DNA of 64,000 bases from the NCBI GenBank assembly GCA_044342075.1, contig JBIIQM010000002.1:6610-70609 (forward strand), written 5' to 3'. A program made the translations under genes and the position numbers. Numbering within the stretch: position 1 is the first letter of the stretch; each line of letters starts with the position of its first letter. The notes under the pieces were generated by a model that saw nothing but the letters and a program-made list of their open reading frames with translations, was not told where the DNA came from and searched no databases. The stretch is from Pirellulales bacterium. Its GTDB lineage: Bacteria; Planctomycetota; Planctomycetia; Pirellulales; UBA1268. Of this stretch, positions 9,303-54,130 are shown one piece after another.

Positions 9303-9319
9303 CTTCGGGACGAAGTGGC

Positions 9320-9754: not shown

Positions 9755-9911
9755 CGGCAGGGTCCGTGGAGAGGGCGAAGAGCGGTATCTCGGCGGAGAA
9801 TTGTAGCGTTTTGCGTCGCCGGCAGCGGTCTGGACCGCCGCTTCGGCCCCCGCTATCGTCCCGCCGCTTCGGGCATGTGCCCGTGAGCACACCCTCGTGA
9901 CCTGAAAGCCG

Positions 9912-28088: not shown

Positions 28089-28128
28089 GGCCTCCGATCC
28101 CGGGGCATCCCTGCCAAGGAAAGCTTGC

Positions 28129-28611: not shown

Positions 28612-28655
28612 AGGGTGCCGCGGTTTCTATTCGTTTCTCTCAAGAAGGGCCGTGC

Positions 28656-30224
28656 ATGGACGCACACCATTCCTTCCCGCATCCCGGCCGTCGGCCGTTC
28701 GTCTCGCCCGCGCAGGTGATCGCGCTTGGCCTCGTGGCCGCGTCGGTCGGCTGGGCGGCCTGGCTCTTGCGCGACCGCCCGATCCGCGAGGAGACGGAGT
28801 TGCTCGCAGGCAGTGTGCTCCCCTCGTCGGAACTGGCGATCATGGAGGCGGCGTTCGACCGCGCCCAGCTCACCGACTACCGCACCGAAGGCGGGAAGGT
28901 CTACGTACCCCGCAGCCGGCAGAGCGCCTACATGCGGGCGCTCGTCGATGCCGAGGCGTTGCCGCGGGAGTTTGGCGGCAGCCTGCGGCGGGCGCTTGCC
29001 AACAACAGCCCGTGGCAGAGCAAGGCGGTGCAGTCCGAATTGCTGCGCGTGGCCACGCAGGACGAACTCTCGCTCGTGCTCTGTTCGATGCCGGGGATCG
29101 AACGCGCCGCGGTGCTCTACGACGTCGAGGAGCAGGCCGGCCTTGCCGGCGGCACCGTGAAGACGGCGAGCGTGAGCATTCGCACGCAGCCCGATGCCGA
29201 ACTCGACGCCACCCGCGTGCAGGCGATCCGCGTCCTCGTCGCCGCCTCGATCGCGGGTCTCTCCGCCGAACGGGTCGCCGTGACCGACCTACGCAGCGGC
29301 CGCGTCTTCGTCGGCCCGCTCGAGGACGAGGCCGCCGCTGCAGCCGATCCCGCACTTGGCCGGAAGCTCGCCTACGAGCGGGCGTTGGCCTCGAAGGTGC
29401 GGCAGTCGCTGGCGTTCGTGAAGGGGGCGATCGTCGATGTCACCATCGCGTTTGCCGAGCCCGCACCGCCCGTGGAGGCCGCCCCCGTTCCGGCATTGCC
29501 CCCCGCTGAGCCTGCGCAGAAGCCGGCCGACGCCAACGCCCCGGCGGAGATCACGATCGCGCCGGCTTTGGCCCCGGCCCCGGCCCCAGAGGCAAAGCCC
29601 GCGCGACTTGCCCGCGGCGACACGCTCGGCACGGTGCATGTCTCGATCGCGATCCCCGATACCTATCTGCAGGCGGCGCACGCGGCCCGTGAACGGGCCG
29701 GCCAGGGCCTGCCAAGCCGGGCCGCGGTCGAGGCGGCCGAGATCGAGCGGATCCGGTCGCTCGTCGCGCAGATGATGCCCGCCACCGTCGAGCCGGCAGG
29801 CCGGCGCGTGGTGATCACGAGTTTTCCGACAGCCGCGCCGGCGCAGCCGCGGCGCGACGCGTCCCGAACAACGGCGGAACCCGTGGCCGCGGGGAAAGCG
29901 TCCGATCAGAATGTCTCGCTCGCAGAACTGTTTGCCGACTTCACGAGCAGTGACAATCGGTTCGATGCCCGCAAGCTGCCGCGCGAGGTCTGGCTTGCCG
30001 GCTTGAGTGTGTGTGTCGGCCTCCTGGCCGGCATGCTCTGGTGGCTCGGTGCCCGCGGAAGCGACGCCCCGGCCGCGTACGCCGCGCCGCGACGGGCGAG
30101 CCATTCCCGGATCGATTGGTCGCAGGTGGACGAAGGCTCCGGTGACGATTTCGGCGACGATTTCGGCGACGAGGAGCCGGCCAGGGGCGCGGCATCGCGA
30201 CGCGAGAGCAGGGCTGCAGCATGA
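28656..30224 (+). CDS. fliF: flagellar MS-ring protein FliF-like (YscJ/FliF family)
   Basis: 522 aa. N-terminal TM helix (VIALGLVAASVGWAAWLL). LPSSELAIMEAAFDRAQLTDYRTEGGKVYVPRSRQSAYMRALVDAEALP and PGIERAAVLYD...ASVSIRTQP...VQAIRVLVAASIAGLSAERVAVTD match the FliF layout. C-terminal TM helix. Overlaps the next gene by 4 nt. Confidence 0.65.
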   Translation: MDAHHSFPHPGRRPFVSPAQVIALGLVAASVGWAAWLLRDRPIREETELLAGSVLPSSELAIMEAAFDRAQLTDYRTEGGKVYVPRSRQSAYMRALVDAEALPREFGGSLRRALANNSPWQSKAVQSELLRVATQDELSLVLCSMPGIERAAVLYDVEEQAGLAGGTVKTASVSIRTQPDAELDATRVQAIRVLVAASIAGLSAERVAVTDLRSGRVFVGPLEDEAAAAADPALGRKLAYERALASKVRQSLAFVKGAIVDVTIAFAEPAPPVEAAPVPALPPAEPAQKPADANAPAEITIAPALAPAPAPEAKPARLARGDTLGTVHVSIAIPDTYLQAAHAARERAGQGLPSRAAVEAAEIERIRSLVAQMMPATVEPAGRRVVITSFPTAAPAQPRRDASRTTAEPVAAGKASDQNVSLAELFADFTSSDNRFDARKLPREVWLAGLSVCVGLLAGMLWWLGARGSDAPAAYAAPRRASHSRIDWSQVDEGSGDDFGDDFGDEEPARGAASRRESRAAA

Positions 30225-35232: not shown

Positions 35233-36045
35233 GTGGTTGCTCGCTTTTTTCTCGCCGCGTCATGCGCCGCCGCCGTGATCACTATCGCGTCGGTCGGATC
35301 GGGGTGCAGGCTCATGCCCCGCGGGCCGGTGCCTCAGGATCTCGCCGCAGCGCGGCGGCTCTCCAACGAGGGCCTCTCCGCGGCCGACCGCAACGATCTC
35401 CTGCGGGCCGAGGGGCTGCTGGAACGCGCCGTGAAGAGCTGCCCCACCGACGTCGATGCGCGGCGCCACTATGCCGACGTGCTCTGGAAGCGCGGCGAGC
35501 GTCTCGAGGCCGTGAGGCAGATCGCCGCGGCGCTGGAACTCTCGCCGGACGACGTCGGCCTCTCCATCGATGGCGGCCGGATGTACATGGAACTCGGACT
35601 GCTCGACGACGCCGACCGGCTCGCCGCCAACGCCGTGCGGGCCGCGCCGCGGTCGGCCGACGCCTGGCACCTGCACGGGCAGGTGGCCCTCGCCCGCGGC
35701 CGGTCCGAAGACGCGCTCGCCGACTTCCATCGGGCGCTGTCGATCGTGCCCGATGATCGCGAGGTGCTGCTGGCCACCGCCGAGGTCTATCGCAGTCTCG
35801 ATCGCCCGCAGCGGGCGCTCGCCACGCTCGGCATCCTGGGCGAAACCTACGGCCCGAATGGCACCCCGCCCAACGTGCTCGCGCTCGAAGGGATGGCGCT
35901 TGAATCGCTGGGCCGCCCTGCCGACGCGCTGGAGGCCTACCGTCAGGTGGTCGCCCGGGGCGGCGCGACGCCCGAGATCGAGAAGCGGCTCGCGGCGCTA
36001 TCGAGTGGCCCGGCCTCGGGCGAGCCCGCGGTCATTCGCCGGTAG
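35233..36045 (+). CDS. TPR-repeat lipoprotein
   Basis: GTG start. Lipobox-like ITIASVGSGC. Repeated A..Y/A..LG..P helical pairs (ARRHYADVLWKRGERLEA, DAWHLHGQVALARGRSEDALADFHRALSIVPDD). Confidence 0.6.
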   Translation: MVARFFLAASCAAAVITIASVGSGCRLMPRGPVPQDLAAARRLSNEGLSAADRNDLLRAEGLLERAVKSCPTDVDARRHYADVLWKRGERLEAVRQIAAALELSPDDVGLSIDGGRMYMELGLLDDADRLAANAVRAAPRSADAWHLHGQVALARGRSEDALADFHRALSIVPDDREVLLATAEVYRSLDRPQRALATLGILGETYGPNGTPPNVLALEGMALESLGRPADALEAYRQVVARGGATPEIEKRLAALSSGPASGEPAVIRR

Positions 36046-37702
36046 TCGTGCGGCCGGTGAGCAGGTCGAAGGCGCCGATCGCCGGCACGAGCAGGGCCGC
36101 CGTCGCGAAGCCGTAGGCGGCGGCCGTCACGAGCAGCACCTGCAGCGAGTTGCCCTGCAGGAATCCCGTGATCGCCACGAACGTCAAGCTCGGCAGGAGC
36201 GCGGCGGCCCAGGCGATCGCCGGCGAAGGATTGCGGGCGGAGAGCGCCGCGTAGAGCCCCACCGCGCCGCCGACGATCGCGGCAAGAAATGGCGCGAGCT
36301 GCAGCTCGAAACTCGAGCCGAAGGCCACCATGATCCGCATCGTGGTGGCCACGCCGACGAAGAGAAAGGCCACGGTGCCCAGCGCCACGGCGATCGCGCG
36401 CCGCGAAGACGGATAGGAAAGCCCGACGTGCAGCCCGAGCACGGCCGCGAAGAAGAGCAGGATCGCCATGCCGAGCGCCAGATAGAGGGCGTCTTCGGCG
36501 GTCGCGATGCCGGTCGCCGCAAGCGCCCCGGCGAGCGCGAGCGGCAGGATCACGATCTCGCGGGCCACGCCGAGCACGCCGAGCAGCTTGCCCCAGATGA
36601 ATTCCTCCGGCTCGAGATCGCTCACGAGCAGCAGGTCGAGCGAGCCGCGGTCGCGTTCGGTCGTCACGCTCGTCACGGCGAGGGCCGACACCGCCACGAG
36701 GCTCGCCAGCGCCATCGGCACCACGGCCACGGCCACGGCGAGACGATCGGGCCGCGCCGCGCGGGCCTCCGCCACGATCCCGGCCACCGCCGCGGCGAAG
36801 AGCACGAGCCAGGCGAGCCGCACGAGCAGGATCGCGCGGCCGTGGGCCCGCGTGCAGATCTCCCGCCAGAGGATCGGGTTTCTCCAGACCTCGCGGGATC
36901 GAGGCCGGGCGGCCAGCGGCTGGCCACCCGTCTGCTGCCGCGGCTCACCCGCAAGGCTCCAGCGGCGCACCTGCGCCATCGCGATCGCATTGGTGCCGAC
37001 GATGATCGCCGTGCAGAGGCCGAGGAAGGGCCAGAGAAGCGGCAGGCCGAAGGGCTTGAGCGCGGCGAATACGGCGCGGGCCGGCGAGACGATCGCGCCG
37101 GCGTCGGCGCCGAATCGCGCGGCGGCCAGTTCCCCGGCGGCCACCCAGGCCACGAGCGCAAACATCGTGATCGAGAGCGCCTGAAACGTGGTCTCCTTCC
37201 AGAAGGCGACGGTCGTGGCGATGCTCGCCGCGGCGAGCGCGGTCGCGGCCGTCACGGCGAAGAGCCGCGCGAGCTGCCCCGCCGTCACGCCGCCGAAAAG
37301 CCCGGCGATCGCGAAGACCGGCACGGCGGCGAGCAGCAACAGCATCACGCGCACGAGGCTGGCGGCGAGCTTGCCGAGCACGAGCTCGCGGTCGGAGAGC
37401 CGGCTGACGAGCAGGAGCTCGAGCGTGCGGCGATCCTTTTCCACGGTGACGGCCACGGCCCCCGTCAGGGCGGCGGCGAGCGTCGCCAGGCTGAGCTGGA
37501 GCGGGGCGAGAATCCGCAGGAGCGTGGCCCCGAACCGGGCGGTGTCGCCGGCCGTGGTGACCGATTGGGTGCCGGTGACCACGAGCCAGCAGGTGGCGAT
37601 GATCGCCAGGAGCGCGGCTGCATAGACCGCGCGGGCGACGAAGAGCCCACGGGCCCGCGGCGCAAATCTGATTTCTCGTTCGAAAACGGCTCCCAGCAGC
37701 AT
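36032..37702 (-). CDS. internally duplicated ABC-2-like permease (no ATPase gene adjacent)
   Basis: 556 aa, about 12 TM helices. The two halves each carry the E-[KR]-D-R-x-[ST]-L-[ED]-L-L-L-V-S motif (EKDRRTLELLLVS, ERDRGSLDLLLVS). Confidence 0.55.
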   Translation of the reverse strand: MLLGAVFEREIRFAPRARGLFVARAVYAAALLAIIATCWLVVTGTQSVTTAGDTARFGATLLRILAPLQLSLATLAAALTGAVAVTVEKDRRTLELLLVSRLSDRELVLGKLAASLVRVMLLLLAAVPVFAIAGLFGGVTAGQLARLFAVTAATALAAASIATTVAFWKETTFQALSITMFALVAWVAAGELAAARFGADAGAIVSPARAVFAALKPFGLPLLWPFLGLCTAIIVGTNAIAMAQVRRWSLAGEPRQQTGGQPLAARPRSREVWRNPILWREICTRAHGRAILLVRLAWLVLFAAAVAGIVAEARAARPDRLAVAVAVVPMALASLVAVSALAVTSVTTERDRGSLDLLLVSDLEPEEFIWGKLLGVLGVAREIVILPLALAGALAATGIATAEDALYLALGMAILLFFAAVLGLHVGLSYPSSRRAIAVALGTVAFLFVGVATTMRIMVAFGSSFELQLAPFLAAIVGGAVGLYAALSARNPSPAIAWAAALLPSLTFVAITGFLQGNSLQVLLVTAAAYGFATAALLVPAIGAFDLLTGRTTTGE

Positions 37703-39230: not shown

Positions 39231-39297
39231 GTAGGACAGGCTTCAGCCTGTCTCTTCTGCACAACGGGTCTACGCGACAGGCTGAAGCCTGTCCTAC
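39231..39297. repeat. REP doublet (REPIN-like), GTAG-headed family
   Basis: GTAGGACAGGCTTCAGCCTGTC (39231-39252), a 23-nt spacer, then the inverted unit GACAGGCTGAAGCCTGTCCTAC (39276-39297). Lies between convergent genes. Confidence 0.9.
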
Positions 39298-39803: not shown

Positions 39804-40694
39804 ATGCCGCTGCCCCTCGTCACCTGCATTGCCGCGATCGTTGCCGCAGGCTGTGCCGCCCTGGCTGCCTGGCGGGTGCGTGGCTCGACGGCCGTGCCTG
39901 CCGCATGGTGGGCGGTTGCCGCCTGCTTTGCGTTGGCTCTTGACGCGGGGAGCCGCGTGGGTGGCCCCACCGATCCCGCCGCGGCATCGCGGATGCGGCT
40001 CGTCGTGGCGGCGCTTGCCGTCTGCCCCGCGATGTCGCTCTTGGGCGCCAAGCGTCCGCAGCATGGCGTTTGGCAATTGATCGTGGCGTCGCTCGCCGTC
40101 GTGATCGCGATGCCCGCCCTCTCTGCCTGGCTCGTGCGGCCCGGCAGCCTGCCCGATGTCCACCTGCTCGGCCGGGGCTTCCTGGCCGTGCTCGCCGCCG
40201 TCGGCTGGATGAACTTTCTCGCCACGACGAACGGCATTTCAGCGACGGCGATCACTGCGGGCCAGCTGGCGGTGATCCGCCCCTTCCTTCCCGGCATCGC
40301 CACCGACCGGGCTCTGCCGCACGATTCGCTCGACTGTTTCGGGGCCTGCCTGATCGCCGCCGGAGCGGTGCTGGCGGCGGCGTGGCCGCTCGTGCGGCAA
40401 ACAAGCGCAGCGTCCGGCCGCAACGCCGCCGACGCCCTGAGCCGGTCGATCGACCCGCCGTTTCTCGCGCTCCGCGAGACGCTCGGCGCCGCCTGGGCGC
40501 TGCGGATCGCCGAACGCTTCGATTCGGTCGCCGCCGCCCGCGGCTGGCCCTGTCGTCTCGGGTTTCGCGGCGCCGAGGTCGGCGGCGACCCGGCTGATGA
40601 CTCGTGGCACCGCGACGCGCTGCGAGCCTTCAAGGCGCTCATGCATCGGTTCGTCGACGACGCCTGGCTCGCGCGGCACGGCTGGGGAGATTGA
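39804..40694 (+). CDS. polytopic membrane protein, hypothetical
   Basis: 296 aa. Six or more hydrophobic helices, then a soluble C-terminal ~90 aa. No family recognised. Confidence 0.45.
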   Translation: MPLPLVTCIAAIVAAGCAALAAWRVRGSTAVPAAWWAVAACFALALDAGSRVGGPTDPAAASRMRLVVAALAVCPAMSLLGAKRPQHGVWQLIVASLAVVIAMPALSAWLVRPGSLPDVHLLGRGFLAVLAAVGWMNFLATTNGISATAITAGQLAVIRPFLPGIATDRALPHDSLDCFGACLIAAGAVLAAAWPLVRQTSAASGRNAADALSRSIDPPFLALRETLGAAWALRIAERFDSVAAARGWPCRLGFRGAEVGGDPADDSWHRDALRAFKALMHRFVDDAWLARHGWGD

Positions 40695-40850: not shown

Positions 40851-41183
40851 ATGGCCGATGAATCGAAGTCGCAGCGTGCCGCCGCCCCCGAACAGATGCA
40901 GGTGCCGGTCGATGAATCCCACATCGTCGCCCACTATGCCAACTTCTGCCGCGTGACCGGCACGCCCGAGGAGCTCATCGTCGACTTCGGCCTCAACAAG
41001 CAGGTCGCCGGCACGTCGCCCGAGACGATCCAGCTCACGCAGCGGATCATCGTGAACTTCTTCACCGCCAAGCGGCTCGCCTATGCCCTCGGCATGGCGG
41101 TGCAGCGTCATGAGCAGGCCTTCGGCATGCTCGAGACCGACGTGCAGAAGCGGGTTGTCCACCAGCAGCAGGCCAAGGCCTGA
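40851..41183 (+). CDS. DUF3467-like small protein
   Basis: 110 aa. GAGGAG RBS. YANFCRVTGTPEELIVDFGLN...IVNFFTAKRLAYAL resembles the DUF3467 core. Confidence 0.55.
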   Translation: MADESKSQRAAAPEQMQVPVDESHIVAHYANFCRVTGTPEELIVDFGLNKQVAGTSPETIQLTQRIIVNFFTAKRLAYALGMAVQRHEQAFGMLETDVQKRVVHQQQAKA

Positions 41184-41224
41184 TCCGGACGAGCCGGCCT
41201 CGCCCGGCCTGAAAACATCGCCCC

Positions 41225-43312
41225 ATGAGCACGGCCGACGAACAGGCGATCGAAGAGGCACGGCAGCAGATCCGTGCGCTCGTCGACGAGATCGAGACCC
41301 TCTCCCGCAACAATCTGGCGGAAGCGGATTTCTTTCGTGGCCTGCTCGATCGCGTGATCGAGGCGATGGGGGCCGTGGCGGGGCTCGTCTGGCTCATCGG
41401 CGAGCAGGGGCGGGTCGAGCCCGTCTGCCATGCGGGCATGCAGGGCACCGGCCTGACCGACGAGAAAGAATCGCAGGAGGCCCACGGCCGGCTCGTGCAG
41501 ACCCTGATCGGGAATCCGACGGGGCTGCTCGTGCCGCCGCGGGCCGGCCTCACCGGGCCCGACGGCAAGCCGGCCGCCGACAATCCGAGCGACCTGCTCG
41601 TCGTCTCTTCGCCGATCGATCGGGCGGGCAGTCGCGCCGGGCTGATCGAGGTCTTCCACCACCCGAATGCTCCCGACGTCGAGCGGGGCTATCTCAAGTT
41701 TCTCGAGCAGGTGTCGGCCGTGGCCGGCGGCTACCTCGAGCGACGGCAGCTCGTCACGCTCGACTCGCAGCAGGCGGCGCTCTCGCAGGTCGATCGGTTC
41801 AGCCGCGCGGTCCACGAATCGCTCGACCCCATCGCCACGGCATTCGTGCTGGCCAACGAGGCCCGGCGGATCATCGGCTGCGATCGGGTGAGCGTGCTCG
41901 TGAAGCGGCGGCGCAAACTCCGGCTCGAGGCGGTGAGCGGCCAGGAATCGATCGAGCGGCGGGCCACGGCCGTGCAGGCGATCGAGGCGATCGTCCGCGT
42001 GGTGGCGAAGGCAGGCGATCCACTCTGGCATCCGGATCCGGCGAAGGAACTCCCGCCGCAGATCGAGGAGGAGCTCGAGCACTACATCGACGAATCGCAT
42101 GCGACGGCGCTGGCGATCATCCCGCTTGAGAAGCCGCGGCCCACGCCGGTGGTAAAGCCGGGGGGCGTGGATGCGGTGGCCGTGGCGAAGGCGGAGGCGG
42201 CGCCGAAGCAGGTTCCCGAGCCGATCGGCGCGCTCGTCGCGGAATGGTTTTCGTCGAGCACGTTCGACGGGGGGAAGCGGGCCCGCGTGGAGCTCGTCGC
42301 GGAGCATGGCCGCGTGGCCCTTTCCAACGCGCTCGTCCACACGGGGCTGCCGTTCTACGGCGTCTTGAACCTGCTCGACAAATCGAAGGTGCTGACCACC
42401 GCCCGCAACCTGCCCCGCACCGTGCTCGCCGGTCTGGCGACGCTCGCCGGCATCCTCGCGCTGATTTTTATTCCGGCCGACCTGCGGCTCGAGGGGAAGG
42501 GCTCGCTCGAGCCGGTCCACCGCCGCGACGTCTTCGCGGAGATCCAGGGCGTGGTCGAGCGGCTCGAGCCCGGTCTCGAGCACGGCGCCGAGGTGAAGGA
42601 GGGGCAGCTCCTGGCCACGCTCCGCAACACCGATCTCGAGGTGGCGCTCACCGACGTGCTTGGCCGCAAGGCGTCGAGCGAGGAGCAGCTCGTGTCCACC
42701 CGCCGCGCCCTGCTCGAAGACAGCAAGATTTCGGCCGACGAAAAGACCCGCATGGCCGGCCGGGCCGCCCAGCTCCAGCGGGAGATCGAGAGCCTCGAGG
42801 AGCAGCGGAAGCTCTACGAGACGAAGAAGAAAGACCTCCTCGTGCGCAGCCCGATCGACGGCGTGATCGTGACCTGGCAGGTTCGCGATCGGCTGATCCT
42901 CAGGCCGGTGGAGCAGGGGCAGGTGCTCATGAGCGTGGCCGACAAGACCGGCCCTTGGGAGCTCGAGGTCCACATGCCCGACGACCGGCTCGGCCACATC
43001 AATCGCGCCGCGATGGCCGCGAAGCAGGCCGCCCGCGAGCTCGAGGTGGATTACATCCTGGCCACCGATCCCGGCACGCGGCACCGGGGCACCGTCAAGG
43101 AGATCCACGAGCAGGCCGAGGTTCGGGGCGAGCAAGGCAATACGGTGCTCGTGCGGGTCACGATCGATCCCAGCCGCCACGAGAAGGAAGAGCTTGGTGC
43201 GGGGGCGAGCGTCACGGCGCGGATCAACTGTGGCAAGCGTCCGCTCGGCTATGTCTGGTTTCACGACGTGCTTTCATTCATCCAATCGCAGATCCTCTTC
43301 CGGCTCTGGTGA
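41225..43312 (+). CDS. GAF-GAF-TM-HlyD membrane fusion (periplasmic adaptor) protein
   Basis: 695 aa. Two GAF-like regions (...AVAGLVWLIGEQGRVEP...AGLIEVFHH; ...FVLANEARRIIGCDRVSVLV...IGALVAEWF). One TM helix (VLAGLATLAGILALIFI). HlyD lipoyl/coiled-coil/barrel (VKEGQLLATLRN, long heptad stretch, LVRSPIDGVIVTW). Confidence 0.7.
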   Translation: MSTADEQAIEEARQQIRALVDEIETLSRNNLAEADFFRGLLDRVIEAMGAVAGLVWLIGEQGRVEPVCHAGMQGTGLTDEKESQEAHGRLVQTLIGNPTGLLVPPRAGLTGPDGKPAADNPSDLLVVSSPIDRAGSRAGLIEVFHHPNAPDVERGYLKFLEQVSAVAGGYLERRQLVTLDSQQAALSQVDRFSRAVHESLDPIATAFVLANEARRIIGCDRVSVLVKRRRKLRLEAVSGQESIERRATAVQAIEAIVRVVAKAGDPLWHPDPAKELPPQIEEELEHYIDESHATALAIIPLEKPRPTPVVKPGGVDAVAVAKAEAAPKQVPEPIGALVAEWFSSSTFDGGKRARVELVAEHGRVALSNALVHTGLPFYGVLNLLDKSKVLTTARNLPRTVLAGLATLAGILALIFIPADLRLEGKGSLEPVHRRDVFAEIQGVVERLEPGLEHGAEVKEGQLLATLRNTDLEVALTDVLGRKASSEEQLVSTRRALLEDSKISADEKTRMAGRAAQLQREIESLEEQRKLYETKKKDLLVRSPIDGVIVTWQVRDRLILRPVEQGQVLMSVADKTGPWELEVHMPDDRLGHINRAAMAAKQAARELEVDYILATDPGTRHRGTVKEIHEQAEVRGEQGNTVLVRVTIDPSRHEKEELGAGASVTARINCGKRPLGYVWFHDVLSFIQSQILFRLW

Positions 43313-43319
43313 GGCCCCC

Positions 43320-44231
43320 ATGCCCGTGCGACTCCTGCTTCTTGCTTCGATTGTGATCTCCTGTCAGCTCGCCGCCTTTGCCGAGGCTCCCGGCTCGTCG
43401 GAGCCGGTGCTCGAGCGGTGCCTCGTCTCGCTCGTGGAAGAGGCGAAGGTGCCGGCCCGCGAGCCGGGCGTGCTCGTGGAGCTCACCGTCCGCGAAGGGG
43501 CCACGGTCCGCCGCGGCGACGTGATCGCGAAGATCGACGACGACCAGCCACAGATGGAGAAGCGGAAGGCGAAGGCGGAGCACGACCAGGCGATCGCGAA
43601 GGCCGAGAGCGACGTCGACGTGCGGTATTCCATCACCGCCGAGCAGGTGGCGGAGGCCGAGCACAAAAAGGCTCTTGAGTCGCATGCGAAGGTGCCGGGG
43701 AGCGTGACGGAGGTCGAGCGGGCCCGGCTGATGCTCAACGAGCGAAAGAGCGAGCTGCAGATCGAACAGGCCGAGCTCGAGCGGCGGATGGCGACGCTCG
43801 CGGCCGCGTCGAAGGGAGTGGAGCTCGAAGCGGCCGAAAACGCGATCGAGCGGCGGCTGATCAAGAGCCCGCTCGACGGCGTGGTCGTGCAGATTTTCCC
43901 GCACCAGGGGGAGTGGATGCAGCCGGGCGACCCGCTGGCCCGCGTCGTCCGCGCCGACAAGCTCCGCGTGGAGGGCTACGTCGATTCGAGCCGGTTCGGT
44001 CCCGAGGAGGTTCGCGATCGGCCGGTGACGGTGGAGGTGAAGCTCGCCGACGACCGCAAGGAAACATTCGCGGGCCGGATCGTGTTCACGAGCCCGCTGG
44101 TGGAAAGCGGCGGTGATTACCGCGTGTTCGCCGAAGTGGAAAACCGCCAGGCCCCCGGTTCCGGCCAGTGGCTCCTGCGCGCCGGCCAGACCGCCCGCAT
44201 GACGATCCACTCCTCCCAACCACCGAAGTAG
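43320..44231 (+). CDS. HlyD-family periplasmic adaptor protein
   Basis: 303 aa. Signal peptide MPVRLLLLASIVISCQLAAFA, then VREGATVRRGDVIAKIDD, a coiled coil, and LIKSPLDGVVVQI. The TAG stop lies in the REP head. Confidence 0.75.
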   Translation: MPVRLLLLASIVISCQLAAFAEAPGSSEPVLERCLVSLVEEAKVPAREPGVLVELTVREGATVRRGDVIAKIDDDQPQMEKRKAKAEHDQAIAKAESDVDVRYSITAEQVAEAEHKKALESHAKVPGSVTEVERARLMLNERKSELQIEQAELERRMATLAAASKGVELEAAENAIERRLIKSPLDGVVVQIFPHQGEWMQPGDPLARVVRADKLRVEGYVDSSRFGPEEVRDRPVTVEVKLADDRKETFAGRIVFTSPLVESGGDYRVFAEVENRQAPGSGQWLLRAGQTARMTIHSSQPPK

Positions 44232-44280
44232 GACAGGCTTCAGCCTGTCGTTGTTCATGACAGGCTGAAGCCTGTCCTAC
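44228..44280. repeat. REP doublet (REPIN-like) inside the operon
   Basis: Units at 44228-44249 and 44259-44280 in inverted orientation, with the 9-nt spacer GTTGTTCAT. Confidence 0.9.
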
Positions 44281-44285
44281 TCCTC

Positions 44286-46520
44286 ATGTCCACCGCCGCC
44301 GACGCCTTTCGTTCGAGCACCACCAGGCCGGTGAGCCTCAAGCGGCGAGGCGATCTCGTCACGAACCGGCAGGTCTACCAGGGGCAGGCCTGGTGGGTGG
44401 TGAAAGACCCGATCTCACTCCACTACTTCCGGTTCCGCCCGGAGGAGTATTGGCTGCTCGACATGCTCGACGGCCAGAAGAGCCTGGAGGTGCTCAAGGA
44501 GCAGTTCGAGGCGAAGTTTCCGCCGCGGCGGATCACGGTGGAGGAGCTCTCGCGGTTCGTCGCCACGCTCCACCGCTCGGGGCTCGTGATCGGCGACCGC
44601 CCGGGGCAGGGTCCGCAGCTTTTCGAGCGGCGTCGGCAGCGGATCTGGAAGCAGTGGATGGCGTGGCTCGCGAACATCATGTCGATGCGGTTTCGCGGCA
44701 TCGATCCCGACCGGCTGCTCACGCGGCTCGATCCCTGGTTTGGCTGGCTCTTCTCGCCGCCGGCAATCGTCTGCATGCTGGCGTTCGTGGCGAGCGCCGT
44801 CCTGCTCGTGCTCGTGAATTTCGACACGTTCCGGTCGAAGCTGCCGGAGTTTCATCAGTTCTTCGCCGCGGGCAACTGGCTCTACCTGGCGATCGCGCTG
44901 GGCGTCACGAAGGTGCTGCATGAATTCGGCCACGGCCTTTCCTGCAAGCATTACGGCGGGGAATGCCACGAGATGGGCATGATGCTGCTCGTCTTCACCC
45001 CCTGCCTTTATTGCGACGTCTCCGACAGCTGGATGCTCCCCTCGAAGTGGAAGCGGGCGGCGATCGGAGCGGCGGGGATGTATGTGGAGGTGATCATCGC
45101 CTCGATCGCCACCTTCCTCTGGTGGAACTCGCATCCGGGCATCTTCAACCAGCTCTGCCTCGACGTGATGTTCGTCTCGAGTGTGTCGACGATCCTCTTC
45201 AATGCCAACCCGCTTTTGCGCTACGACGGCTACTACATCCTCTCCGACGTCCTCGAGATCCCGAACCTGCGGCAGAAGGCGACGACGATTCTCGGGCGGA
45301 TCGCGAGCCGCTGGTGCCTCGGCATCAAGCAGCCGGAGGACCCCTTCCTGCCGCAGCGGAATCGCGGCCTCTTCGCCCTCTACGCCGTGGCGTCGAGCCT
45401 CTACGGCTGGTTCGTGTCGCTCTCGATCTTTCTCTTCGTCTGGAGCGTCTTCAAGCCGTATCGGCTGGAGGTGCTGGGGCAGATCCTCGCGGGCGCGGCG
45501 CTCTGGGGCTTGGTGGTGAAGCCGATTCACGGGATGATCAAGTTTCTGAACGTGCCCGGGAGGCGCGACGAAGTGAAGACCAAAAACCTCGTGTTCACCG
45601 CGATCGTGGCGGCGGCCCTCGCCGGGGCGATCGCGCTCATTCCCCTGCCGCAGCGGGTCTGGTGCGCCGCCGAACTGCGGCCGCGCGGCGAGGAGACGGT
45701 CTATGTGACGGTGCCGGGGCGGCTCGAGAGCCTCGCCGTGAAGCCCGGCAGCCTCGTGAAGAAGGGGGACGAGATCGCCCGGCTGTCGAGTATCGACCTC
45801 GACCTCGAGATTGCGGATCTCGAGGGGAAGGCGTCACAATCGCGGTCGCGGCTCAACAGCCTCGAGCGGGAGCGGTTTACCGACCCGGCCGCCGGTCTCG
45901 AGATCGGCACGGTGGAGGAATCGCTCAAGAGCGTCGAGGAACAGCTCGACAAGAAGCGGAAAGACCGTCGCGATCTCGTGCTCGTGGCCCCGCGCGACGG
46001 CATCGTGCTGCCGGCGCCGGCGGTCGCGCCGCCGAAGGATGGCTCGGGACGGCTGCCCCCGTGGAGTGGCAACGCGCTCAAAGACAAGAACCTCGGAGCA
46101 ACCTTCCTCGAAGGCACGGTGCTCTGCATGGTGGGGGAGCCGGAGAAATTCGAGGCGGTGATGGTGGTGGACCAATCGGAGGTGGAGTTCATCGCGAAGG
46201 GGCAGCAGGTGGATCTCAAGCTCGATTCGTTCCCCTGGCAGACGTTCACGGGCACGGTCGCGGAAATCGCGGAGACCCACATCGAAAGCAGTTCCGAGCG
46301 GCTGAGCGTGAAGGCGGGCGGCCAGGTGCCGACGGAGACGACGGAGGAGGGCCGCGAGCAGCCGATCTCGACGAGCTATGAGGCGATGATGTCGCTCGAC
46401 GACACGGAGGCCGTGCTCACGCCGGGCATGCGTGGCACCGCGCGGATCAAGGTGGGCAGCCGCACCGTGGGCCAGTGGCTCCTCCGCCTCATCTGGCAAA
46501 CCTTCAACTTCCGCATGTAG
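44286..46520 (+). CDS. PqqD-like domain / M50 (site-2 protease family) metalloprotease / HlyD adaptor fusion protein
   Basis: 744 aa. N-terminal WWVVKDPISLHYFRFRPEEYWLLDMLDGQKSLEVLKEQF...LSRFVATLHRSGLV. Zinc motif LHEFGHGLSCKHYG. Second S2P motif NANPLLRYDGYYILSD within a polytopic region. C-terminal VKKGDEIARLSS, coiled coil, LVAPRDGIVL. Confidence 0.75.
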   Translation: MSTAADAFRSSTTRPVSLKRRGDLVTNRQVYQGQAWWVVKDPISLHYFRFRPEEYWLLDMLDGQKSLEVLKEQFEAKFPPRRITVEELSRFVATLHRSGLVIGDRPGQGPQLFERRRQRIWKQWMAWLANIMSMRFRGIDPDRLLTRLDPWFGWLFSPPAIVCMLAFVASAVLLVLVNFDTFRSKLPEFHQFFAAGNWLYLAIALGVTKVLHEFGHGLSCKHYGGECHEMGMMLLVFTPCLYCDVSDSWMLPSKWKRAAIGAAGMYVEVIIASIATFLWWNSHPGIFNQLCLDVMFVSSVSTILFNANPLLRYDGYYILSDVLEIPNLRQKATTILGRIASRWCLGIKQPEDPFLPQRNRGLFALYAVASSLYGWFVSLSIFLFVWSVFKPYRLEVLGQILAGAALWGLVVKPIHGMIKFLNVPGRRDEVKTKNLVFTAIVAAALAGAIALIPLPQRVWCAAELRPRGEETVYVTVPGRLESLAVKPGSLVKKGDEIARLSSIDLDLEIADLEGKASQSRSRLNSLERERFTDPAAGLEIGTVEESLKSVEEQLDKKRKDRRDLVLVAPRDGIVLPAPAVAPPKDGSGRLPPWSGNALKDKNLGATFLEGTVLCMVGEPEKFEAVMVVDQSEVEFIAKGQQVDLKLDSFPWQTFTGTVAEIAETHIESSSERLSVKAGGQVPTETTEEGREQPISTSYEAMMSLDDTEAVLTPGMRGTARIKVGSRTVGQWLLRLIWQTFNFRM

Positions 46521-46596
46521 GGTAGGCTTCAGCCTGCCAAAAAGTAGGACAGGCTTCAGCCTGTCGGTATTCATGACAGGCTGAAGCCTGTCCTAC
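46517..46596. repeat. REP cluster (3 units)
   Basis: Variant GTAGGGTAGGCTTCAGCCTGCC (46517-46538), a canonical unit (46544-46565), the spacer GGTATTCAT, and an inverted canonical unit (46575-46596). Confidence 0.9.
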
Positions 46597-47597: not shown

Positions 47598-50096
47598 TCA
47601 CGGAGCCGGGAGCGGAACGATCAACGCCGGATTGTAGTTCGGCGGCGGCGGCGGTGGCGTGAGCGGCGAGGTCGTTCCGGTATTGACCGGATTGAAGATC
47701 GGGTTTGTCGTGACCGTCGCGTTTCTGTTCAATGCGACCAGGTTGTCTTGGCTGGCTGCCTTTATGCTGAGCGAATTCAGGCCCGCGGTGGTGTTGCTCG
47801 TGGTCAGATAGATGTCGGACCGGACCGTAGCCGGGCTCGTGATGCCACCGGCCGTGCCGGTGGCGACGGCCGTTGTCCCGCGGACGGCGATCGTGTTGCC
47901 GACGATATTCGCATTGATCACACCGGAATCACCGGCCGCGGTGCCCGAGCCGTTGATCGCCAGGTTGATGCCGTTCCCGCCAAACGGGGCGATGAGTTTG
48001 TTTTGGTTAATCGTGAGGTTGAGCTGTTCACCCGCATTCGGTGCGGAGCCTTGCACGCCGATTGCGGCGGTGATCGTTGAACCCACCACCTGAACCGTCG
48101 AGGTGCCGGTGGTTTGAGTGACTCCGGCAATCACCGGCGCACCCGACACCTCCACGCCGTACAACCCTACTCTCGTGATCGTCGACGACTGGACGATCGC
48201 ATTCGCGCCGGTCACGGTCACGCCTGCCCCCGTGGTGCCATCGATCGCGCTGTTCGCCAAGCGGACGCGGCCTTCGCCCGCAATCGCATTGGCGACGACG
48301 GCTGACCCAGATGTATTTTTGATCGTGGAGTTCGAGATGTTGACGAACGGATTGCCCACGATCGCCCCTGTCGAATCTTGGCCATCCACGACGAATCCAT
48401 CGGCGGTCAGGTTCGTCAGTGCCATGTTTGTGAAGTCGAACGTGCCACCGTTGCCCTGCTGATCTGCGATGACTACGCCCGTCTGGCTTGGGGCGGTGCC
48501 ATTGATCCGCACGTCATTGACCGTCGCCCGACCGCCTGCTGGCATGCCGCTGCCGTCGGAGATGCCTACCGTGGCTCCCGTAATCTGTAGGTGATCAACC
48601 GTTGCATTGGTGGCGGAGCCATTCGTGAGGTCGATAGCCGCGATCGCTGAGGGATTGGCAGAGTTCGTGATGACGGGATATCGCGGTGATCCGGCTGCCG
48701 TCCAAATCGGGACGAAGCCACAGTTGACCGTCGGCACCTGCAGCGACGTGCCTTCGCCAACCAGGTATTGGTTGTCGGCATTGAAGATGAACCCGCCCGC
48801 GTAAGGCGAGTTGAGACTGTTGCCCTGGTGCACGAAAACGATGTCGTAGGGCCGGTTGGCGGCGCTATTTGCGTTGCGGGCCGTAGCTGCCGGGCTGCCG
48901 TCTGTCGCCAGCCGCGTGAAAGGCGATTCGGCGGTGCCGTTGCCAGCCGGTGCGTCCGTGGCCGAGTTGTCCACGTGGATGACGCGCCAGGGAGTATTTG
49001 TAAACGGATTGATCGCTTGCTCCGGCGCCTGGTGGGCGCGCACGATGTGCTCGTTGCGCATCATCGGCTGCTCCATCTGGTCGGGCACGTTGCGGCGGCG
49101 GCTGCCGCCCATGCGGTAGGTGAGCCGCGCGAAGCCGGTCGAATCGAAGTAGCTGTCGTTGTTGTATTGCAGCGAGAAATCCCAGTTGCGGATGAGCGTG
49201 AGGTCGAGGCGGGTGTAGACACCGCCGAAGAAGGGCACCACATCCTGCCCGTTGGCGAGGTTGTAGCGGGCGTTGCCAAACGTATAGCCGCCCACGCTCA
49301 CCATGCCGGCCCAGTCGGCGAGGCCCGGGACATACGCACCGACTTCAAGATCGGCTCCGGCCAGCGCCGCGTTGATGCCTGGCGTGCAGAGCAGCGACTG
49401 GCCCACGAACGGGCCCATCGTCTGGGCCGTCGTGCCCACGGGGATGTAGCCATTGGATCGCAGGTTGCCGTAGTCGGTGAGGAACTCGCCCGACACGCCC
49501 ACCTGGTTGTAGCTCTGGCCGCCGGCGAAGATGTAGCTGCCGCTCGAGTCGGTGATCGTCGTGTCGGCATACTGGTTTTGGTCGCCGTCGTAATCCCAGT
49601 AGACGCCGATGCCACCGATCGCCCCGCCGAAGAACTGCTTCCGGACGAGGCCCACGTTCGAGAAGAAGCCGCCGTAATTCGAGAGGTGGCTGCGCAGATC
49701 GGCCGACCAGATGCCGCCCAGATCGTCTTCGGCATAAGGAATGAAGCCGCCGAGCGTCATGTAGCTGCCCTGGTAGCCGAGGCCGCGGTCGGCCGCGTTC
49801 AAGCCCCAGTACATCCAGCCGGGGCCATTTGCCTCGAGTTCGCGAAACCGAGCGATGCCGCTATTCACGAGACCGCCCACGGGCGCCATCGCGCCCTGGC
49901 CCGAGGCCCCGCCGATCATGCCGCTGCCCACCTGGGCATGGCTCACCATGGGGCCGTCCGCGACAAACGCCGCGACGAGCATCATTGTGAGGACCTTGCG
50001 GGTGCCGCGTTTGAAGGCCGCGGCCCGGCGTTTGATCGCCCGCAGCCTGGCAATGGCTCGTTTCCTACCTGTGCGGGTGGCGGCTGTTTTGCTCAT
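47598..50096 (-). CDS. inverse-autotransporter-like outer membrane protein with parallel beta-helix passenger
   Basis: ATG at 50096. Signal region VLTMMLVAAFVADGPMVSHA. The N-terminal part carries intimin/invasin beta-domain-like blocks (NVGLVRKQF, GIGVYWDYDGD, VGVSGEFLTDYGNLRSNGYIPVG, ADLEVGAYVPGL, MMRNEHIVRAH). About 400 aa of G/T/N/A-rich beta-helix-type repeats follow, then a Pro-rich tail. Confidence 0.6.
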   Translation of the reverse strand: MSKTAATRTGRKRAIARLRAIKRRAAAFKRGTRKVLTMMLVAAFVADGPMVSHAQVGSGMIGGASGQGAMAPVGGLVNSGIARFRELEANGPGWMYWGLNAADRGLGYQGSYMTLGGFIPYAEDDLGGIWSADLRSHLSNYGGFFSNVGLVRKQFFGGAIGGIGVYWDYDGDQNQYADTTITDSSGSYIFAGGQSYNQVGVSGEFLTDYGNLRSNGYIPVGTTAQTMGPFVGQSLLCTPGINAALAGADLEVGAYVPGLADWAGMVSVGGYTFGNARYNLANGQDVVPFFGGVYTRLDLTLIRNWDFSLQYNNDSYFDSTGFARLTYRMGGSRRRNVPDQMEQPMMRNEHIVRAHQAPEQAINPFTNTPWRVIHVDNSATDAPAGNGTAESPFTRLATDGSPAATARNANSAANRPYDIVFVHQGNSLNSPYAGGFIFNADNQYLVGEGTSLQVPTVNCGFVPIWTAAGSPRYPVITNSANPSAIAAIDLTNGSATNATVDHLQITGATVGISDGSGMPAGGRATVNDVRINGTAPSQTGVVIADQQGNGGTFDFTNMALTNLTADGFVVDGQDSTGAIVGNPFVNISNSTIKNTSGSAVVANAIAGEGRVRLANSAIDGTTGAGVTVTGANAIVQSSTITRVGLYGVEVSGAPVIAGVTQTTGTSTVQVVGSTITAAIGVQGSAPNAGEQLNLTINQNKLIAPFGGNGINLAINGSGTAAGDSGVINANIVGNTIAVRGTTAVATGTAGGITSPATVRSDIYLTTSNTTAGLNSLSIKAASQDNLVALNRNATVTTNPIFNPVNTGTTSPLTPPPPPPNYNPALIVPLPAP

Positions 50097-50248
50097 CGGA
50101 GTCGGATCCCTGGCGGTCGCCGGTTGGTCGAACGGGGCGATCCCCACGCGGAAAAACCGGCATGATCGTCAGGAGTGATCGACCCACCGCGACCGGATCC
50201 ATGAGAATTTCCGGCAGAGAGGCCGAGGGTTGCCCAGGTTAACAGGGA

Positions 50249-50357
50249 GTAGGACGGGCTTTAGCCTGTCGGAACATGGCAGGCTGGAAGCCTGCCCCAC
50301 CGGAGACAGGCTGAAGCCTGTCCTACTTGGGGAGACAGGCACGGAGGCCTGTCCTAC
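50249..50357. repeat. REP cluster (4 units)
   Basis: 50249-50270 GTAGGACGGGCTTTAGCCTGTC. 50278-50300 GGCAGGCTGGAAGCCTGCCCCAC (GTGG head on the other strand). 50305-50326 is canonical. 50334-50357 GACAGGCACGGAGGCCTGTCCTAC. Confidence 0.85.
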
Positions 50358-51958
50358 GAGACGCGGAAGCGGCTGATGGTGTCGGTGAGGCCGTCCACCG
50401 AGTGGCCCATGTGCTGTGAGGCGGCCTTGAATTCCTTCAGGGCCTCGGCGGCCGCGTGGGAGCCTTCTTTGAGCGTCATGAGGGCCTCGGTGATCTGGGC
50501 GGCTCCGGCAGCCTGGGCCTTCATCCCCTGATTCACGTGCTCGAACCGGCCCGTCAGGCCGTGCACCTTGTCGATCACGTCGGCGAATTGCGCACTGATC
50601 CCATTTACTCGCTCCACGCCCGTCTTCACCTCCGCCGCAAACCGGTCCATCTCCATCACGCCCGCATTCACCGCCTGCTGCATCTGCTCGACGAGCCGCT
50701 CGATGTCGAGCGTGGCCACGGCCGTCTGATCGGCGAGCCGGCGGATCTCCCGGGCCACCACGATGAAACCCTGCCCATATTCCCCCGCCTTCTCCGCCTC
50801 GATCGCGGCGTTGATCGAAAGCAGGTTCGTCTGGTCGGCCACCTTCGTGATCGTGGTGATCACCATGTTGATGTCTTCCGCCCGCTGCCGGATCGCCGCC
50901 AGCCGCTCCGAGAAATCGGTCGTCGTCTTTTCGAGATGGGCCATCGTCTCGCCGATCCCCACGAGATTCTCCCGGCCTGCGTCGGCCACGGTTGCCGTGT
51001 CGGCCGCCACGCCCGCCACCTCGTCCATCGTGCCGAGCAGTTCCTGGCCTGTCACGGCGATCTGACGGCTGGCCACCGCCGCCTCGCTCGTGCTCGCGCC
51101 GAGCGAACTGATCGCGTGCTCCTGCTGGCGGCCCGCGGCCGAGAGTTGCTTGGCCGTGGCATTCAGATCGAGGCTCGATTGCTTCACCTGCGAGACAATG
51201 GCCCGCAGGCTCGCCGTCATGCCGCCGATGTCGCGGAGCAACTGGCCCGTCTCGTCGCTGCCACGCATATCGATCGCGCCGGTGAGGTCGCCGGCGGCCA
51301 CGCGGCGCGAGGCGTCGACAGCCTTCGCGATCCGGCCGGTGAGCGTCGTTGTGAGCCACGCGAGCAGCGCCAGCACGCCCGCCATCCCGGTGGCGGCCAC
51401 GGCTCCACTCATGAGGAGCGGCCGGCGGACACGGCTCAAGACATCGTCGAGCTGCGCCTGCAAGACGACCGTCCACGAGCGGGCAGGCAGTTTCGCCGCG
51501 GCGTAGAGCAGGGGGGCGCCCGTCACCGGGTCGGCGGCCTGCACGATCCGGGCGGTCGTCACGGCCCGATTGAATTCATCGAGGACCTTTGCATAGGGCG
51601 TGTCGGCGATCAGTTTGCCGCTGAGGTCGGCCGTGGCCACCGTCGCAGCGATCAGCCGCCCTTCGCGGTCAATCACGAAGAGCTCCGGATGCCAGCCGGC
51701 CCGCTGCTGCTCGCGCTTGTCGGCCTGGAGCCGCGCCGCCACGGCGTCGGCCGCAGCCTGATCCGCCGCGGGGCCTTGGCAATCGAATTCGCCGGCGATC
51801 CGCCGCACCCGCTCCACGAGCACCTCCTCGCTAAAGGAGAGCAGCATCGACTGCATCCGGCTGTAGTTGAGCCAGAGCACCGTCGCAAAGATGAGGAGCG
51901 CCGGCAGGATGCCGAGCAGGAGCATCCGCAGCCGGATGCCGATGGCGGGGAACTGCAT
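50354..51958 (-). CDS. methyl-accepting chemotaxis protein
   Basis: 534 aa. Two TM helices flanking a periplasmic domain, a HAMP-like segment, and the signalling-domain core [39 protein letters not shown]. Confidence 0.85.
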
Positions 51959-52077
51959 GGTGGTGGGTCCGGGGAAAGGCCTGTTTTCCGAGGCAACCAT
52001 AGGTTACTTTCCGGGCCGGCCGCTTGCGGCTCGCCTGGGCCCCTCTTTCCCGAAAAACCCGCACAACCCGCCCCGCC

Positions 52078-52692: not shown

Positions 52693-52740
52693 GACAGGCT
52701 GAAGCCTGTTTGACTTTTGACAGGCTGAAGCCTGTCCTAC
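52693..52740. repeat. REP cluster (2 direct units)
   Basis: 52693-52714 GACAGGCTGAAGCCTGTTTGAC (degenerate head), TTTT, then a canonical unit at 52719-52740. It ends 2 nt before the ilvA-like start. Confidence 0.85.
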
Positions 52741-53960: not shown

Positions 53961-54130
53961 GGTAGGCTTCAGCCTGCCACTCTTAGACCGCTTCCAAAGT
54001 AGACCGCTTCGTCCCGAAGCGGATCTGGTTCCGCTTGAGGATCAAGCGGACTACTCTGGCAGGCTGAAGTCTGTCCTACTTTGACAGGCTGAAGCCTGTC
54101 CTACGCCAGACAGGCTGAAGCCTGTCCTAC
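53957..54130. repeat. composite REP cluster (two GTAG-headed families)
   Basis: Variant unit at 53957-53978. Family-2 hairpins GTAGACCGCTTCG-TCC-CGAAGCGGATCT (53999-54026) and the inverted GTAGTCCGCTTGA-TCC-TCAAGCGGAAC (54029-54054, other strand). A degenerate unit at 54058-54079 and canonical units at 54083-54104 and 54109-54130. Confidence 0.85.

Follow-up and report, generated by a model that had tools for sequence, protein, structure and literature searches.

A four-gene operon encoding three adaptors and a membrane protease

We analyzed a 64,000-nucleotide (nt) stretch of the genome of a Pirellulales bacterium (Planctomycetota; assembly GCA_044342075.1, contig JBIIQM010000002.1, positions 6,610 to 70,609), hereafter the window, which has a G+C content of ~68%. 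Our subject is an operon of four co-directional genes, g1 to g4, encoding a DUF3467 protein, two separate periplasmic adaptors of the HlyD or membrane fusion protein (MFP) type, and a fusion of three parts: a domain resembling the recognition element (RRE) of ribosomally synthesized and posttranslationally modified peptide (RiPP) pathways, an M50 (site-2) protease core, and a third adaptor. The genes and the parts of g4 are as follows (aa, amino acids; all on the forward strand).

40851-41183, forward: g1, DUF3467 protein, 110 aa
41225-43312, forward: g2, long adaptor, 695 aa
43320-44231, forward: g3, short adaptor, 303 aa from its ATG (the mechanical open reading frame [ORF] begins at TTG 43194)
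44286-46520, forward: g4, RRE-M50-MFP fusion, 744 aa
44343-44600, forward: RRE/PqqD-like winged-helix domain of g4, ~aa 20-105
44919-44933, forward: zinc-site motif HEFGH of g4, aa 212-216
45201-45230, forward: second M50 motif NANPLLRYDG of g4, aa 306-315
45642-46520, forward: periplasmic MFP module of g4, ~aa 453-744, with lipoyl domain, alpha-hairpin (aa 503-562), beta-barrel, and C-terminal amphipathic tail

The spacers measure 41 nt (g1-g2), 7 nt (g2-g3), and 54 nt (g3-g4), and the ORF coordinates agree with the arrangement given in the original prediction, which was made from the sequence without database searches. That prediction also held that the operon neither contains nor adjoins a gene for a pump or an outer-membrane factor, and the window bears this out. 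Genes for ATP-binding cassette (ABC), resistance-nodulation-division (RND), or major facilitator superfamily (MFS) pumps, for TolC, or for a SecA-like protein were found neither in nor beside the operon nor nearby in the window, and no pump, TolC, or SecA-like gene was found anywhere in the 64 kb. The nearest transporter-like gene is, as had been stated, an ABC-2 permease without an ATPase (36032-37702, reverse strand), ~3 kb upstream of the operon and on the opposite strand.

The g4 fusion protein

Profile searches support the PqqD-like and M50 assignments on which the original prediction of a PqqD-like, M50, and HlyD fusion depended. The g4 product matches the Pfam family Peptidase_M50 at 28.0 bits (cutoff, 27.2), as do 31 of 31 relatives. 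Residues H212, E213, and H216 and residues N306, N308, P309, D314, and G315 are invariant across 31 diverse relatives sharing 35 to 52% identity, and proteobacterial homologues retain both motifs (HEFGH in 7 of them). Judged by these motifs, the M50 zinc-protease site is intact and the protein belongs with the site-2 proteases.

Foldseek searches with the full g4 model were dominated by the adaptor module, and the RRE and M50 parts were assessed by comparing sequence profiles with the PDB instead. A profile of the N-terminal 132 aa matched PqqD (3g2b; E = 2.5e-5) over its full length and the lasso-peptide RRE protein TfuB1 (6jx3_B; E = 5.8e-5); TbiB1 was also matched. In the AlphaFold2 model (predicted local distance difference test score [pLDDT], 85), the N-terminal domain has the beta3-alpha3 topology of RREs, with strands at aa 25-31, 34-41, and 46-50 followed by helices at aa 52-60, 67-77, and 85-97. 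The Pfam PqqD model itself finds no match in g4 and matches 14 of the 31 relatives. From profile and model together, the N-terminus is assigned a PqqD-like RRE fold, and its binding of a leader is predicted.

The C-terminal part of the model resembles the adaptors MacA, MexA, AcrA, and EmrA (Foldseek E values from 5e-14 to 1e-9), and its sequence matches HlyD_3 and HlyD_D23. Among curated families, the nearest to g4 (aa 31-380) is the daptide protease MpaP (NF041824; E = 1e-55), for which the score of 189 bits lies below the cutoff of 300 and no daptide genes are nearby. The YydH/LiaK family (NF058609; E = 2e-13) scores 50.6 bits against a cutoff of 225, and there are no radical-SAM or ABC neighbors. 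We therefore did not place g4 in either family.

An additional conserved Cys/His cluster (C220, C227, H228, C240, and C243; aa 220-243, positions 44943-45014) lies just past the HExxH helix. It is confined to the planctomycete clade, being absent from the proteobacterial homologues, and may be a second metal site or form disulfides.

The two separate adaptors and the DUF3467 protein

HlyD_3 scores above its Pfam cutoff in all three of g2, g3, and g4, which identifies each as carrying an HlyD/MFP adaptor. The g2 product, which also exceeds the HlyD_D23 cutoff, was described originally as two GAF domains, one transmembrane (TM) helix, and an HlyD adaptor. We found a cytoplasmic N-terminal region containing a probable GAF domain at ~aa 200-345, a single strong TM segment at aa 396-422, a periplasmic HlyD/MFP module, and a conserved C-terminal tail (CGRRSLGYVWFHDV...F..W). 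The GAF score of the window protein alone is 20.0 bits (cutoff, 22.4). GAF was matched in 7 of 9 g2 orthologues (best E = 3.8e-6), the proteobacterial counterparts exceed the Pfam cutoff at 27 to 55 bits, a profile of the N-terminal half of g2 matched cyanobacteriochrome GAF structures in the PDB (E = 7.7e-6), and g2 aligns with a Mesorhizobium GAF-adaptor through the GAF region. These matches support the second of the two proposed GAF domains; the more N-terminal one (~aa 40-175) is unsupported.

The g3 product, correctly described as an HlyD adaptor with a signal peptide, has a hydrophobic N-terminal segment, MPVRLLLLASIVISC, that reads as a signal peptide or a lipobox-like sequence (VISC is a possible lipobox). 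It passes the RND_mfp model TIGR01730 (105 bits; cutoff, 94.9) and also matches Biotin_lipoyl_2.

The assignment of g1 to DUF3467 holds firmly: it matches the family hidden Markov model (Pfam PF11950) at 74 bits against a cutoff of 25 (E = 1e-20), and it is 31 to 35% identical to DUF3467 proteins in homologous clusters of Thalassospira, Mesorhizobium, and Methylosinus. Its AlphaFold2 model has a core of three strands and a long helix; the core is modeled at a pLDDT of 80 to 88 and the whole at a moderate 64. A fold search against the PDB returned no significant match, the best being Pur-alpha (E = 0.2). We considered a SecB-like identity for DUF3467 and dropped it, as SecB was not among the fold matches and the model is of moderate quality.

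Conservation of the adaptor-adaptor-fusion triad in Planctomycetota

The g4 family is large, with at least 6,997 relatives at 90% clustering and 4,627 clusters at 50% identity (E < 1e-30); nearly all of the top 150 are full-length matches of ~740 aa. A scan of reference-genome contigs with the single g4 protein yielded 80 loci, all in planctomycete metagenome-assembled genomes and 72 to 98% identical. We discarded these close loci as evidence of functional linkage because the whole neighborhood is syntenic among them. Five distant loci (L081, L082, L085, L086, and L087; 35 to 52% identity) are more informative: their flanks are wholly different, and the triad is kept in the order GAF-adaptor (~660 to 695 aa), adaptor (~300 aa), and RRE-M50-adaptor (~740 aa). 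The g2-g3-g4 order recurs in every related planctomycete locus inspected, so the arrangement is not a chance one, and the conserved unit is the g2-g3-g4 triad. The original prediction had required synteny outside its own genome, and for the triad this extends far beyond it. No pump gene was found in ~90 planctomycete loci, and neither a pump nor an outer-membrane factor gene was found at the distant ones.

At one distant locus, L086, a leader-bearing protein, a 67-aa ORF, a SecA-like gene, and the triad follow one another in the same direction. The 67-aa ORF (L086 4888-5091) has no detectable similarity to DUF3467 and lies in the slot that DUF3467 fills in other clusters. At L087, a 673-aa gene without a family match (7749-9770, reverse strand) splits the triad between the short adaptor and fusion genes.

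Homologous clusters on proteobacterial plasmids

A tblastn search of PLSDB plasmids with g4 recovered the full-length fusion in Alphaproteobacteria and Enterobacteriaceae (94 to 99% query coverage, 26 to 30% identity), and we inspected 12 intact proteobacterial clusters. All 12 combine the RRE-M50-adaptor fusion with a long adaptor, which carries the GAF domain in its 516- to 630-aa forms, and a directly adjacent giant ORF. Nine of the giant ORFs are annotated genes of 2,347 to 12,737 aa; the other three, unannotated (Rhodobacteraceae M382, Tistrella, and Ensifer), span at least 1,893 to 3,342 aa by ORF scan. A short adaptor was annotated or detected in nine clusters and was not identified in three from Rhodobacterales (Rhodobacteraceae M382, Alisedimentitalea, and Pseudosulfitobacter). 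The order in Methylosinus is typical: giant protein, DUF3467, GAF-adaptor, RRE/M50/adaptor, SecA-like protein, short adaptor, and TolC.

TolC adjoins half of the clusters (6 of 12), and an ABC, RND, or MFS pump adjoins none. The original prediction would have been refuted had orthologous clusters always sat beside a dedicated ABC transporter and outer-membrane factor; this proved only half true, for the outer-membrane factor in half of the clusters and not for the transporter. Such a factor appears, from this linkage, to be part of the system, with its gene unlinked to the operon here.

A truncated SecA-like ATPase is adjacent in 6 of the 12 clusters and at planctomycete locus L086. These paralogues are 616 to 660 aa long and contain the SecA_DEAD, PP_bind, and P-loop domains without the scaffold/wing or C-terminal domains; they score 547 to 642 bits against SecA equivalog cutoffs of 814 to 862, which places them outside the SecA equivalogs. 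From domain content and position, the truncated paralogue is likely the motor. Two of these genes carry other annotations, apparently in error: Methylosinus WP_244635385 (L089 10192-12108) is labeled a prepilin peptidase and Mesorhizobium WP_164752926 (L094 11108-13069) a DEAD/DEAH box helicase, and both match SecA models at E of ~1e-180.

DUF3467 is present in 4 of the 12 intact clusters, and all 11 DUF3467 genes on PLSDB plasmids lie within ~3 kb of a homologous cluster or its remnants. The original prediction had offered the DUF3467 protein as a candidate substrate or partner. Because every plasmid-borne copy sits in such clusters, we read it as a partner and reject it as the substrate: it is, by this gene association, a recurrent accessory component of homologous clusters of Alphaproteobacteria. 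It was not found beside the five more distant planctomycete triads. That absence had pointed to a clade-specific passenger, an idea overturned by the proteobacterial clusters.

The system occurs in 24 of 5,426 complete Escherichia coli genomes, mostly on plasmids and without assigned gene names, and the E. coli plasmid cluster adjoins a gene for a 4,459-aa immunoglobulin-like (Ig-like) protein. Records of strains with this cluster include NZ_CP081687 and NZ_CP030920. In Kosakonia cowanii, the cluster (L104 14074-16181) is followed by three tandem genes of ~225 aa annotated as tail fiber proteins, and in Niveispirillum by the gene of a 294-aa hypothetical protein; the products are possible additional cargo or accessory components.

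Candidate cargo and its N-terminal leader

The N-termini of the giant neighbors suggest a shared leader. Seven of the eight that we read show a basic stretch followed by LEPRxLLSAD or LEPRMMFDGA, and these leaders lack the normal hydrophobic core of Sec signals. NCBIfam model NF012209 ("LEPR-XLL") describes a 24-residue N-terminal motif with a cutoff of 17 bits. Four giant neighbors exceed it (Thalassospira, 27.5; Methylosinus, 29.1; Mesorhizobium, 34.1; and Tistrella, 18.3), two fall narrowly below (Niveispirillum, 15.7; Kosakonia, 16.0), and the E. coli giant protein does not reach it. At L086, the leader-bearing protein (1,295 aa; FG-GAP/Big_1) starts with ...RRSSKPRSHAPACIEILEPRQML (...ILEPRQML). 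A strict version of the motif, sought in all six frames of 1.24 Mb of fetched loci plus the window, gave five hits, all at the N-termini of long ORFs.

In close relatives, the operon and its MOSC neighbor are directly followed by a variable slot, occupied by differing genes whose products begin with a basic N-terminus and then LE[PSRAT]R. Leader genes are enriched there, with 16 convincing cases in 354 kb downstream versus 1 doubtful case in 260 kb upstream (binomial P of ~0.001, for loci that are related and hence nonindependent). A distinct, cysteine-containing variant of the motif is found in a family of ~600- to 830-aa proteins downstream of the operon at L002, L003, L028, L032, L048, and L051, whose N-termini end in ...E(T/S/A/M)LERRDCPA.... 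In the window, the slot is empty, and a six-frame translation of the 64 kb gave a single motif match, which we list as a tentative candidate cargo.

5560-7932, reverse strand: 790-aa beta-propeller/repeats-in-toxin (RTX) protein, ~33 kb from the operon, N-terminus MDRRHRSSRHTLSVETLEARTLLTA

Its N-terminus has a basic stretch and then an LExR-LL motif, and the protein matches Beta_propel (5.7e-119) and HemolysinCabind.

The original prediction had allowed for either a peptide or a protein cargo and had proposed looking nearby for small ORFs with leader-like sequences. We found no shared small precursor upstream of the triad; the leader motif occurs on large proteins in relatives, and a giant ORF is adjacent in all 12 plasmid clusters. 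The protein half of that proposal is thus the one retained. Judging from these N-termini and neighbors, the likely cargo is not a small peptide of the RiPP type but a secreted repeat protein, large or giant, whose N-terminus is basic and carries an LEPRxLL-type motif.

Proposed function and alternative explanations

We lean toward the view that the operon encodes an apparatus dedicated to the export and processing of large proteins that bear a leader, with each mechanistic step held less firmly than the whole. The apparatus would be envelope spanning and tripartite, similar to type I secretion and without an ABC, RND, or MFS pump, and the operon would supply its cytoplasmic-membrane and periplasmic core. 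The combination of an RRE with a protease points to a leader-bearing substrate. The cytoplasmic RRE of g4 would bind the basic LEPRxLL-type leader, by analogy with RREs and RiPP leaders, and the M50 core would cut the leader at the membrane, with the conserved proline as the helix breaker that site-2 proteases require. The SecA-like motor, where encoded, might push the unfolded protein outward, and the cargo would reach an outer-membrane channel, of the TolC type or another, by way of a duct formed from the three adaptors. The g4 fusion is the only polytopic inner-membrane component of this multiadaptor assembly. The DUF3467 protein could be a cytoplasmic accessory, acting as a chaperone or adaptor for cargo or motor, and the GAF region of g2 a docking or regulatory module; the earlier label of "ligand gated" derives solely from the GAF fold. 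In this planctomycete, the genes for cargo, the outer-membrane component, and any motor would lie elsewhere. The triad is strongly conserved in sequence and has no fixed cargo neighbor, features which suggest that it serves many leader-bearing proteins. The original interpretation is partly supported, being right in outline and corrected with regard to the cargo, the role of DUF3467, the outer-membrane factor, and the motor.

Several observations weigh against export by such an apparatus. The giant neighbor in Alisedimentitalea has no LEPR motif at its annotated start. Seven planctomycete leaders, including that of the window candidate, score below the NF012209 cutoff (12.5 bits at best), and because the curated model fails on them, the planctomycete leaders are assigned by motif resemblance and position. 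In the window, the operon has no adjoining gene for cargo, TolC, or a SecA-like protein, and the sole candidate cargo gene lies at a distance of 33 kb; outside this clade, most planctomycete triads lack DUF3467. The planctomycete relatives at 35 to 52% identity may be paralogues with other roles. Our proteobacterial sample consists of plasmids, and half of its clusters, that of E. coli included, lack a dedicated ATPase, which leaves the energy source and the inner-membrane path unexplained. The mechanistic steps themselves are drawn from domain identity and gene neighborhood.

Three other explanations are less consistent with the neighborhood data. In the first, the operon serves a conventional pump-driven system as an accessory: transport is the work of an ABC (type I), RND, or MFS pump encoded elsewhere, and the fusion only trims or checks the cargo. 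In its favor, type I systems typically carry giant RTX or Ig-repeat adhesins, adaptors normally depend on a pump, an ATPase-less ABC-2 permease lies 3 kb upstream in the window, and 6 of 12 proteobacterial loci have no adjacent ATPase. However, a pump is clustered with the genes at none of the 12 proteobacterial and none of the ~90 planctomycete loci, whereas TolC and SecA-like genes often are; the ABC-2 gene lies on the opposite strand, and its linkage is confined to the close clade; and the cargo signal is N-terminal, not of the C-terminal type I kind. We consider this explanation unlikely.

We give still less credence to a module for maturation and export of RiPP-type peptides, in which the RRE binds the leader of a small peptide, the M50 domain removes it as in YydH or MpaP, and the adaptors export the product. 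The closest curated families of g4 are indeed MpaP and YydH/LiaK, and the RRE most resembles PqqD and lasso-peptide B1 proteins. Both family scores are nonetheless well under their cutoffs (189 versus 300 and 51 versus 225 bits), the distant loci share no precursor-like small ORF upstream of g2, no modification enzyme (radical SAM, YcaO, dehydratase, etc.) lies beside the triad in ~100 loci, and the constant proteobacterial neighbor is a giant protein ORF.

Just as improbable is regulated intramembrane proteolysis or envelope surveillance, in which the M50 domain would cut a regulator in the membrane, for instance an anti-sigma factor, or clear membrane proteins, with the adaptors and GAF domain as sensors and not a conduit: this is the classical mode of site-2 proteases, extracytoplasmic function sigma genes lie within 10 kb in two planctomycete loci, and the triad is conserved like a housekeeping system, but there is no PDZ or anti-sigma partner, the sigma genes are not consistently linked, the RRE indicates recognition of a peptide leader, and three MFP modules with TolC, a SecA-like ATPase with a preprotein-binding domain, and giant proteins form a secretion signature.

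Taking export of leader-bearing proteins as the preferred explanation, we regard the case for the following broader proposal as evenly balanced: that these genes represent an undescribed type of Gram-negative secretion, in which an RRE-site-2-protease-adaptor fusion and two further adaptors form the inner-membrane core and, with a truncated SecA as motor in many lineages and TolC or another outer-membrane channel, recognize and remove an LEPRxLL-type leader from giant adhesin-like proteins and export them; that it is widespread from Planctomycetota, where leader-bearing exoproteins in general may use it, to the plasmids of Alphaproteobacteria and E. coli; and that it is the first case of RiPP-style leader recognition in whole-protein export.

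If true, this would add a class to the few bacterial secretion machineries, with a membrane protease in the place of the pump and a SecA relative working outside the Sec translocon, and would extend RiPP-type leader recognition to the export of whole proteins. It would account for the exit of many giant proteins annotated "LEPR-XLL" or "DUF4347" that lack normal signal peptides, and would assign roles to DUF3467 as well as to thousands of proteins annotated as "HlyD family," "biotin/lipoyl-binding protein," or "PqqD family." It would also indicate a core function of the envelope in Planctomycetota, a group about whose secretion little is known. The E. coli plasmid cluster, beside its 4,459-aa Ig-like protein, makes the hypothesis testable in a standard host.

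Neighboring genes and other features of the window

We rejected the flanking genes (the ABC-2 permease, tetratricopeptide repeat proteins, MOSC protein, 296-aa membrane ORF, and 849-aa protein) as parts of the system, because their linkage is confined to the close clade and they have no homologues in the proteobacterial clusters. An anti-phage defense role was likewise dropped, as PADLOC models matched neither g1 to g4 nor the upstream ORF. That ORF (39804-40694, forward strand), 156 nt upstream of g1, encodes a 296-aa polytopic membrane protein without a family match. It is kept in 47 close relatives, with its forward frame better conserved than the overlapping reverse frame, and is absent from the distant planctomycete and proteobacterial clusters.

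An 849-aa protein (47598-50147, reverse strand) has a signal peptide and a weak match to an inverse-autotransporter beta-domain. In relatives, the variable slot that follows the operon downstream repeatedly holds paralogues of it with a common "GPGWLYYGINAADRGLGYNGSYMTLGGFIPY" (L021 14034-16316, L030 5752-8058, L063 6502-9198, and L073 6649-8859). The protein may be an outer-membrane barrel partner.

Two pairs of hairpins resembling repetitive extragenic palindromic (REP) elements flank g4.

44232-44276, palindromic: REP-like hairpin pair GACAGGC-N4-GCCTGTC, occupying the g3-g4 spacer
46548-46592, palindromic: REP-like hairpin pair, same element, beginning 28 nt past the g4 stop codon

The second may mark the end of the operon. 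Six such pairs occur in the window (the others at 39235-39293, 50253-50322, 52693-52736, and 54083-54126), making 12 copies, all intergenic, against 0.03 expected by chance; they may be transcript-end or transcript-stability elements. Elsewhere, the window encodes flagellar export genes (FlhA, FliF-like), a methyl-accepting chemotaxis protein, and a DUF3987/Toprim gene (9912-11870, 28125-30224, 50354-52000, and 60398-62827). The last-named lies near the low-G+C end of the window (0.62 to 0.64), which may point to a mobile element.

Comparison with known systems

The system is apparently undescribed. We found no account of it in the searchable full-text literature, which excludes subscription-only papers, and the June 2026 NCBIfam library has no model naming g1 or g4.

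With type I secretion (HlyB-HlyD-TolC, and LapBCE and SiiCDF for giant adhesins), it shares a periplasm-spanning HlyD/MFP adaptor, TolC in 6 of the 12 proteobacterial clusters, and genes beside the machinery for giant, repeat-rich, often calcium-binding or Ig-like cargo. It differs in having no ABC transporter, the defining component of type I systems, at any locus and three adaptor proteins instead of one. An M50 protease bearing a cytoplasmic RRE serves as its polytopic inner-membrane part. The signal, assessed by reading the N-termini of the giant neighbors, is a candidate N-terminal basic and LEPRxLL leader, in contrast to the uncleaved C-terminal signal of type I cargo, and the motor, if encoded, is a SecA paralogue.

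YydH/LiaK and the daptide protein MpaP have a homologous N-terminal domain and M50 core and likely also couple leader removal at the membrane to export. Unlike g4, they have no fused MFP module, and they cluster with small precursors, tailoring enzymes, and ABC exporters, none of which occur here, where the neighbors are giant. Lasso-peptide B1/B2 proteins and PqqD share the RRE fold paired with a leader peptidase; the B1/B2 peptidase is a cytoplasmic cysteine protease, whereas g4 has a membrane zinc protease. The presumed RRE ligand here is a leader on proteins that range in length from hundreds of residues to thousands, the latter in the proteobacterial clusters.

Accessory SecA2 systems likewise encode a dedicated SecA paralogue together with specialized, very large surface proteins. 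Their SecA2 is linked to SecY2 and Asp proteins, whereas the ~616- to 660-aa paralogue here is linked to MFP and TolC genes and is absent from the window. Tripartite efflux pumps (MacAB-TolC, AcrAB-TolC, and EmrAB-TolC) provide the best structural matches for the adaptor modules, and g3 resembles the lipoprotein-type adaptors AcrA and MexA. Those assemblies contain a pump subunit and handle small molecules; the adaptors described here come without a pump and are associated with giant proteins.

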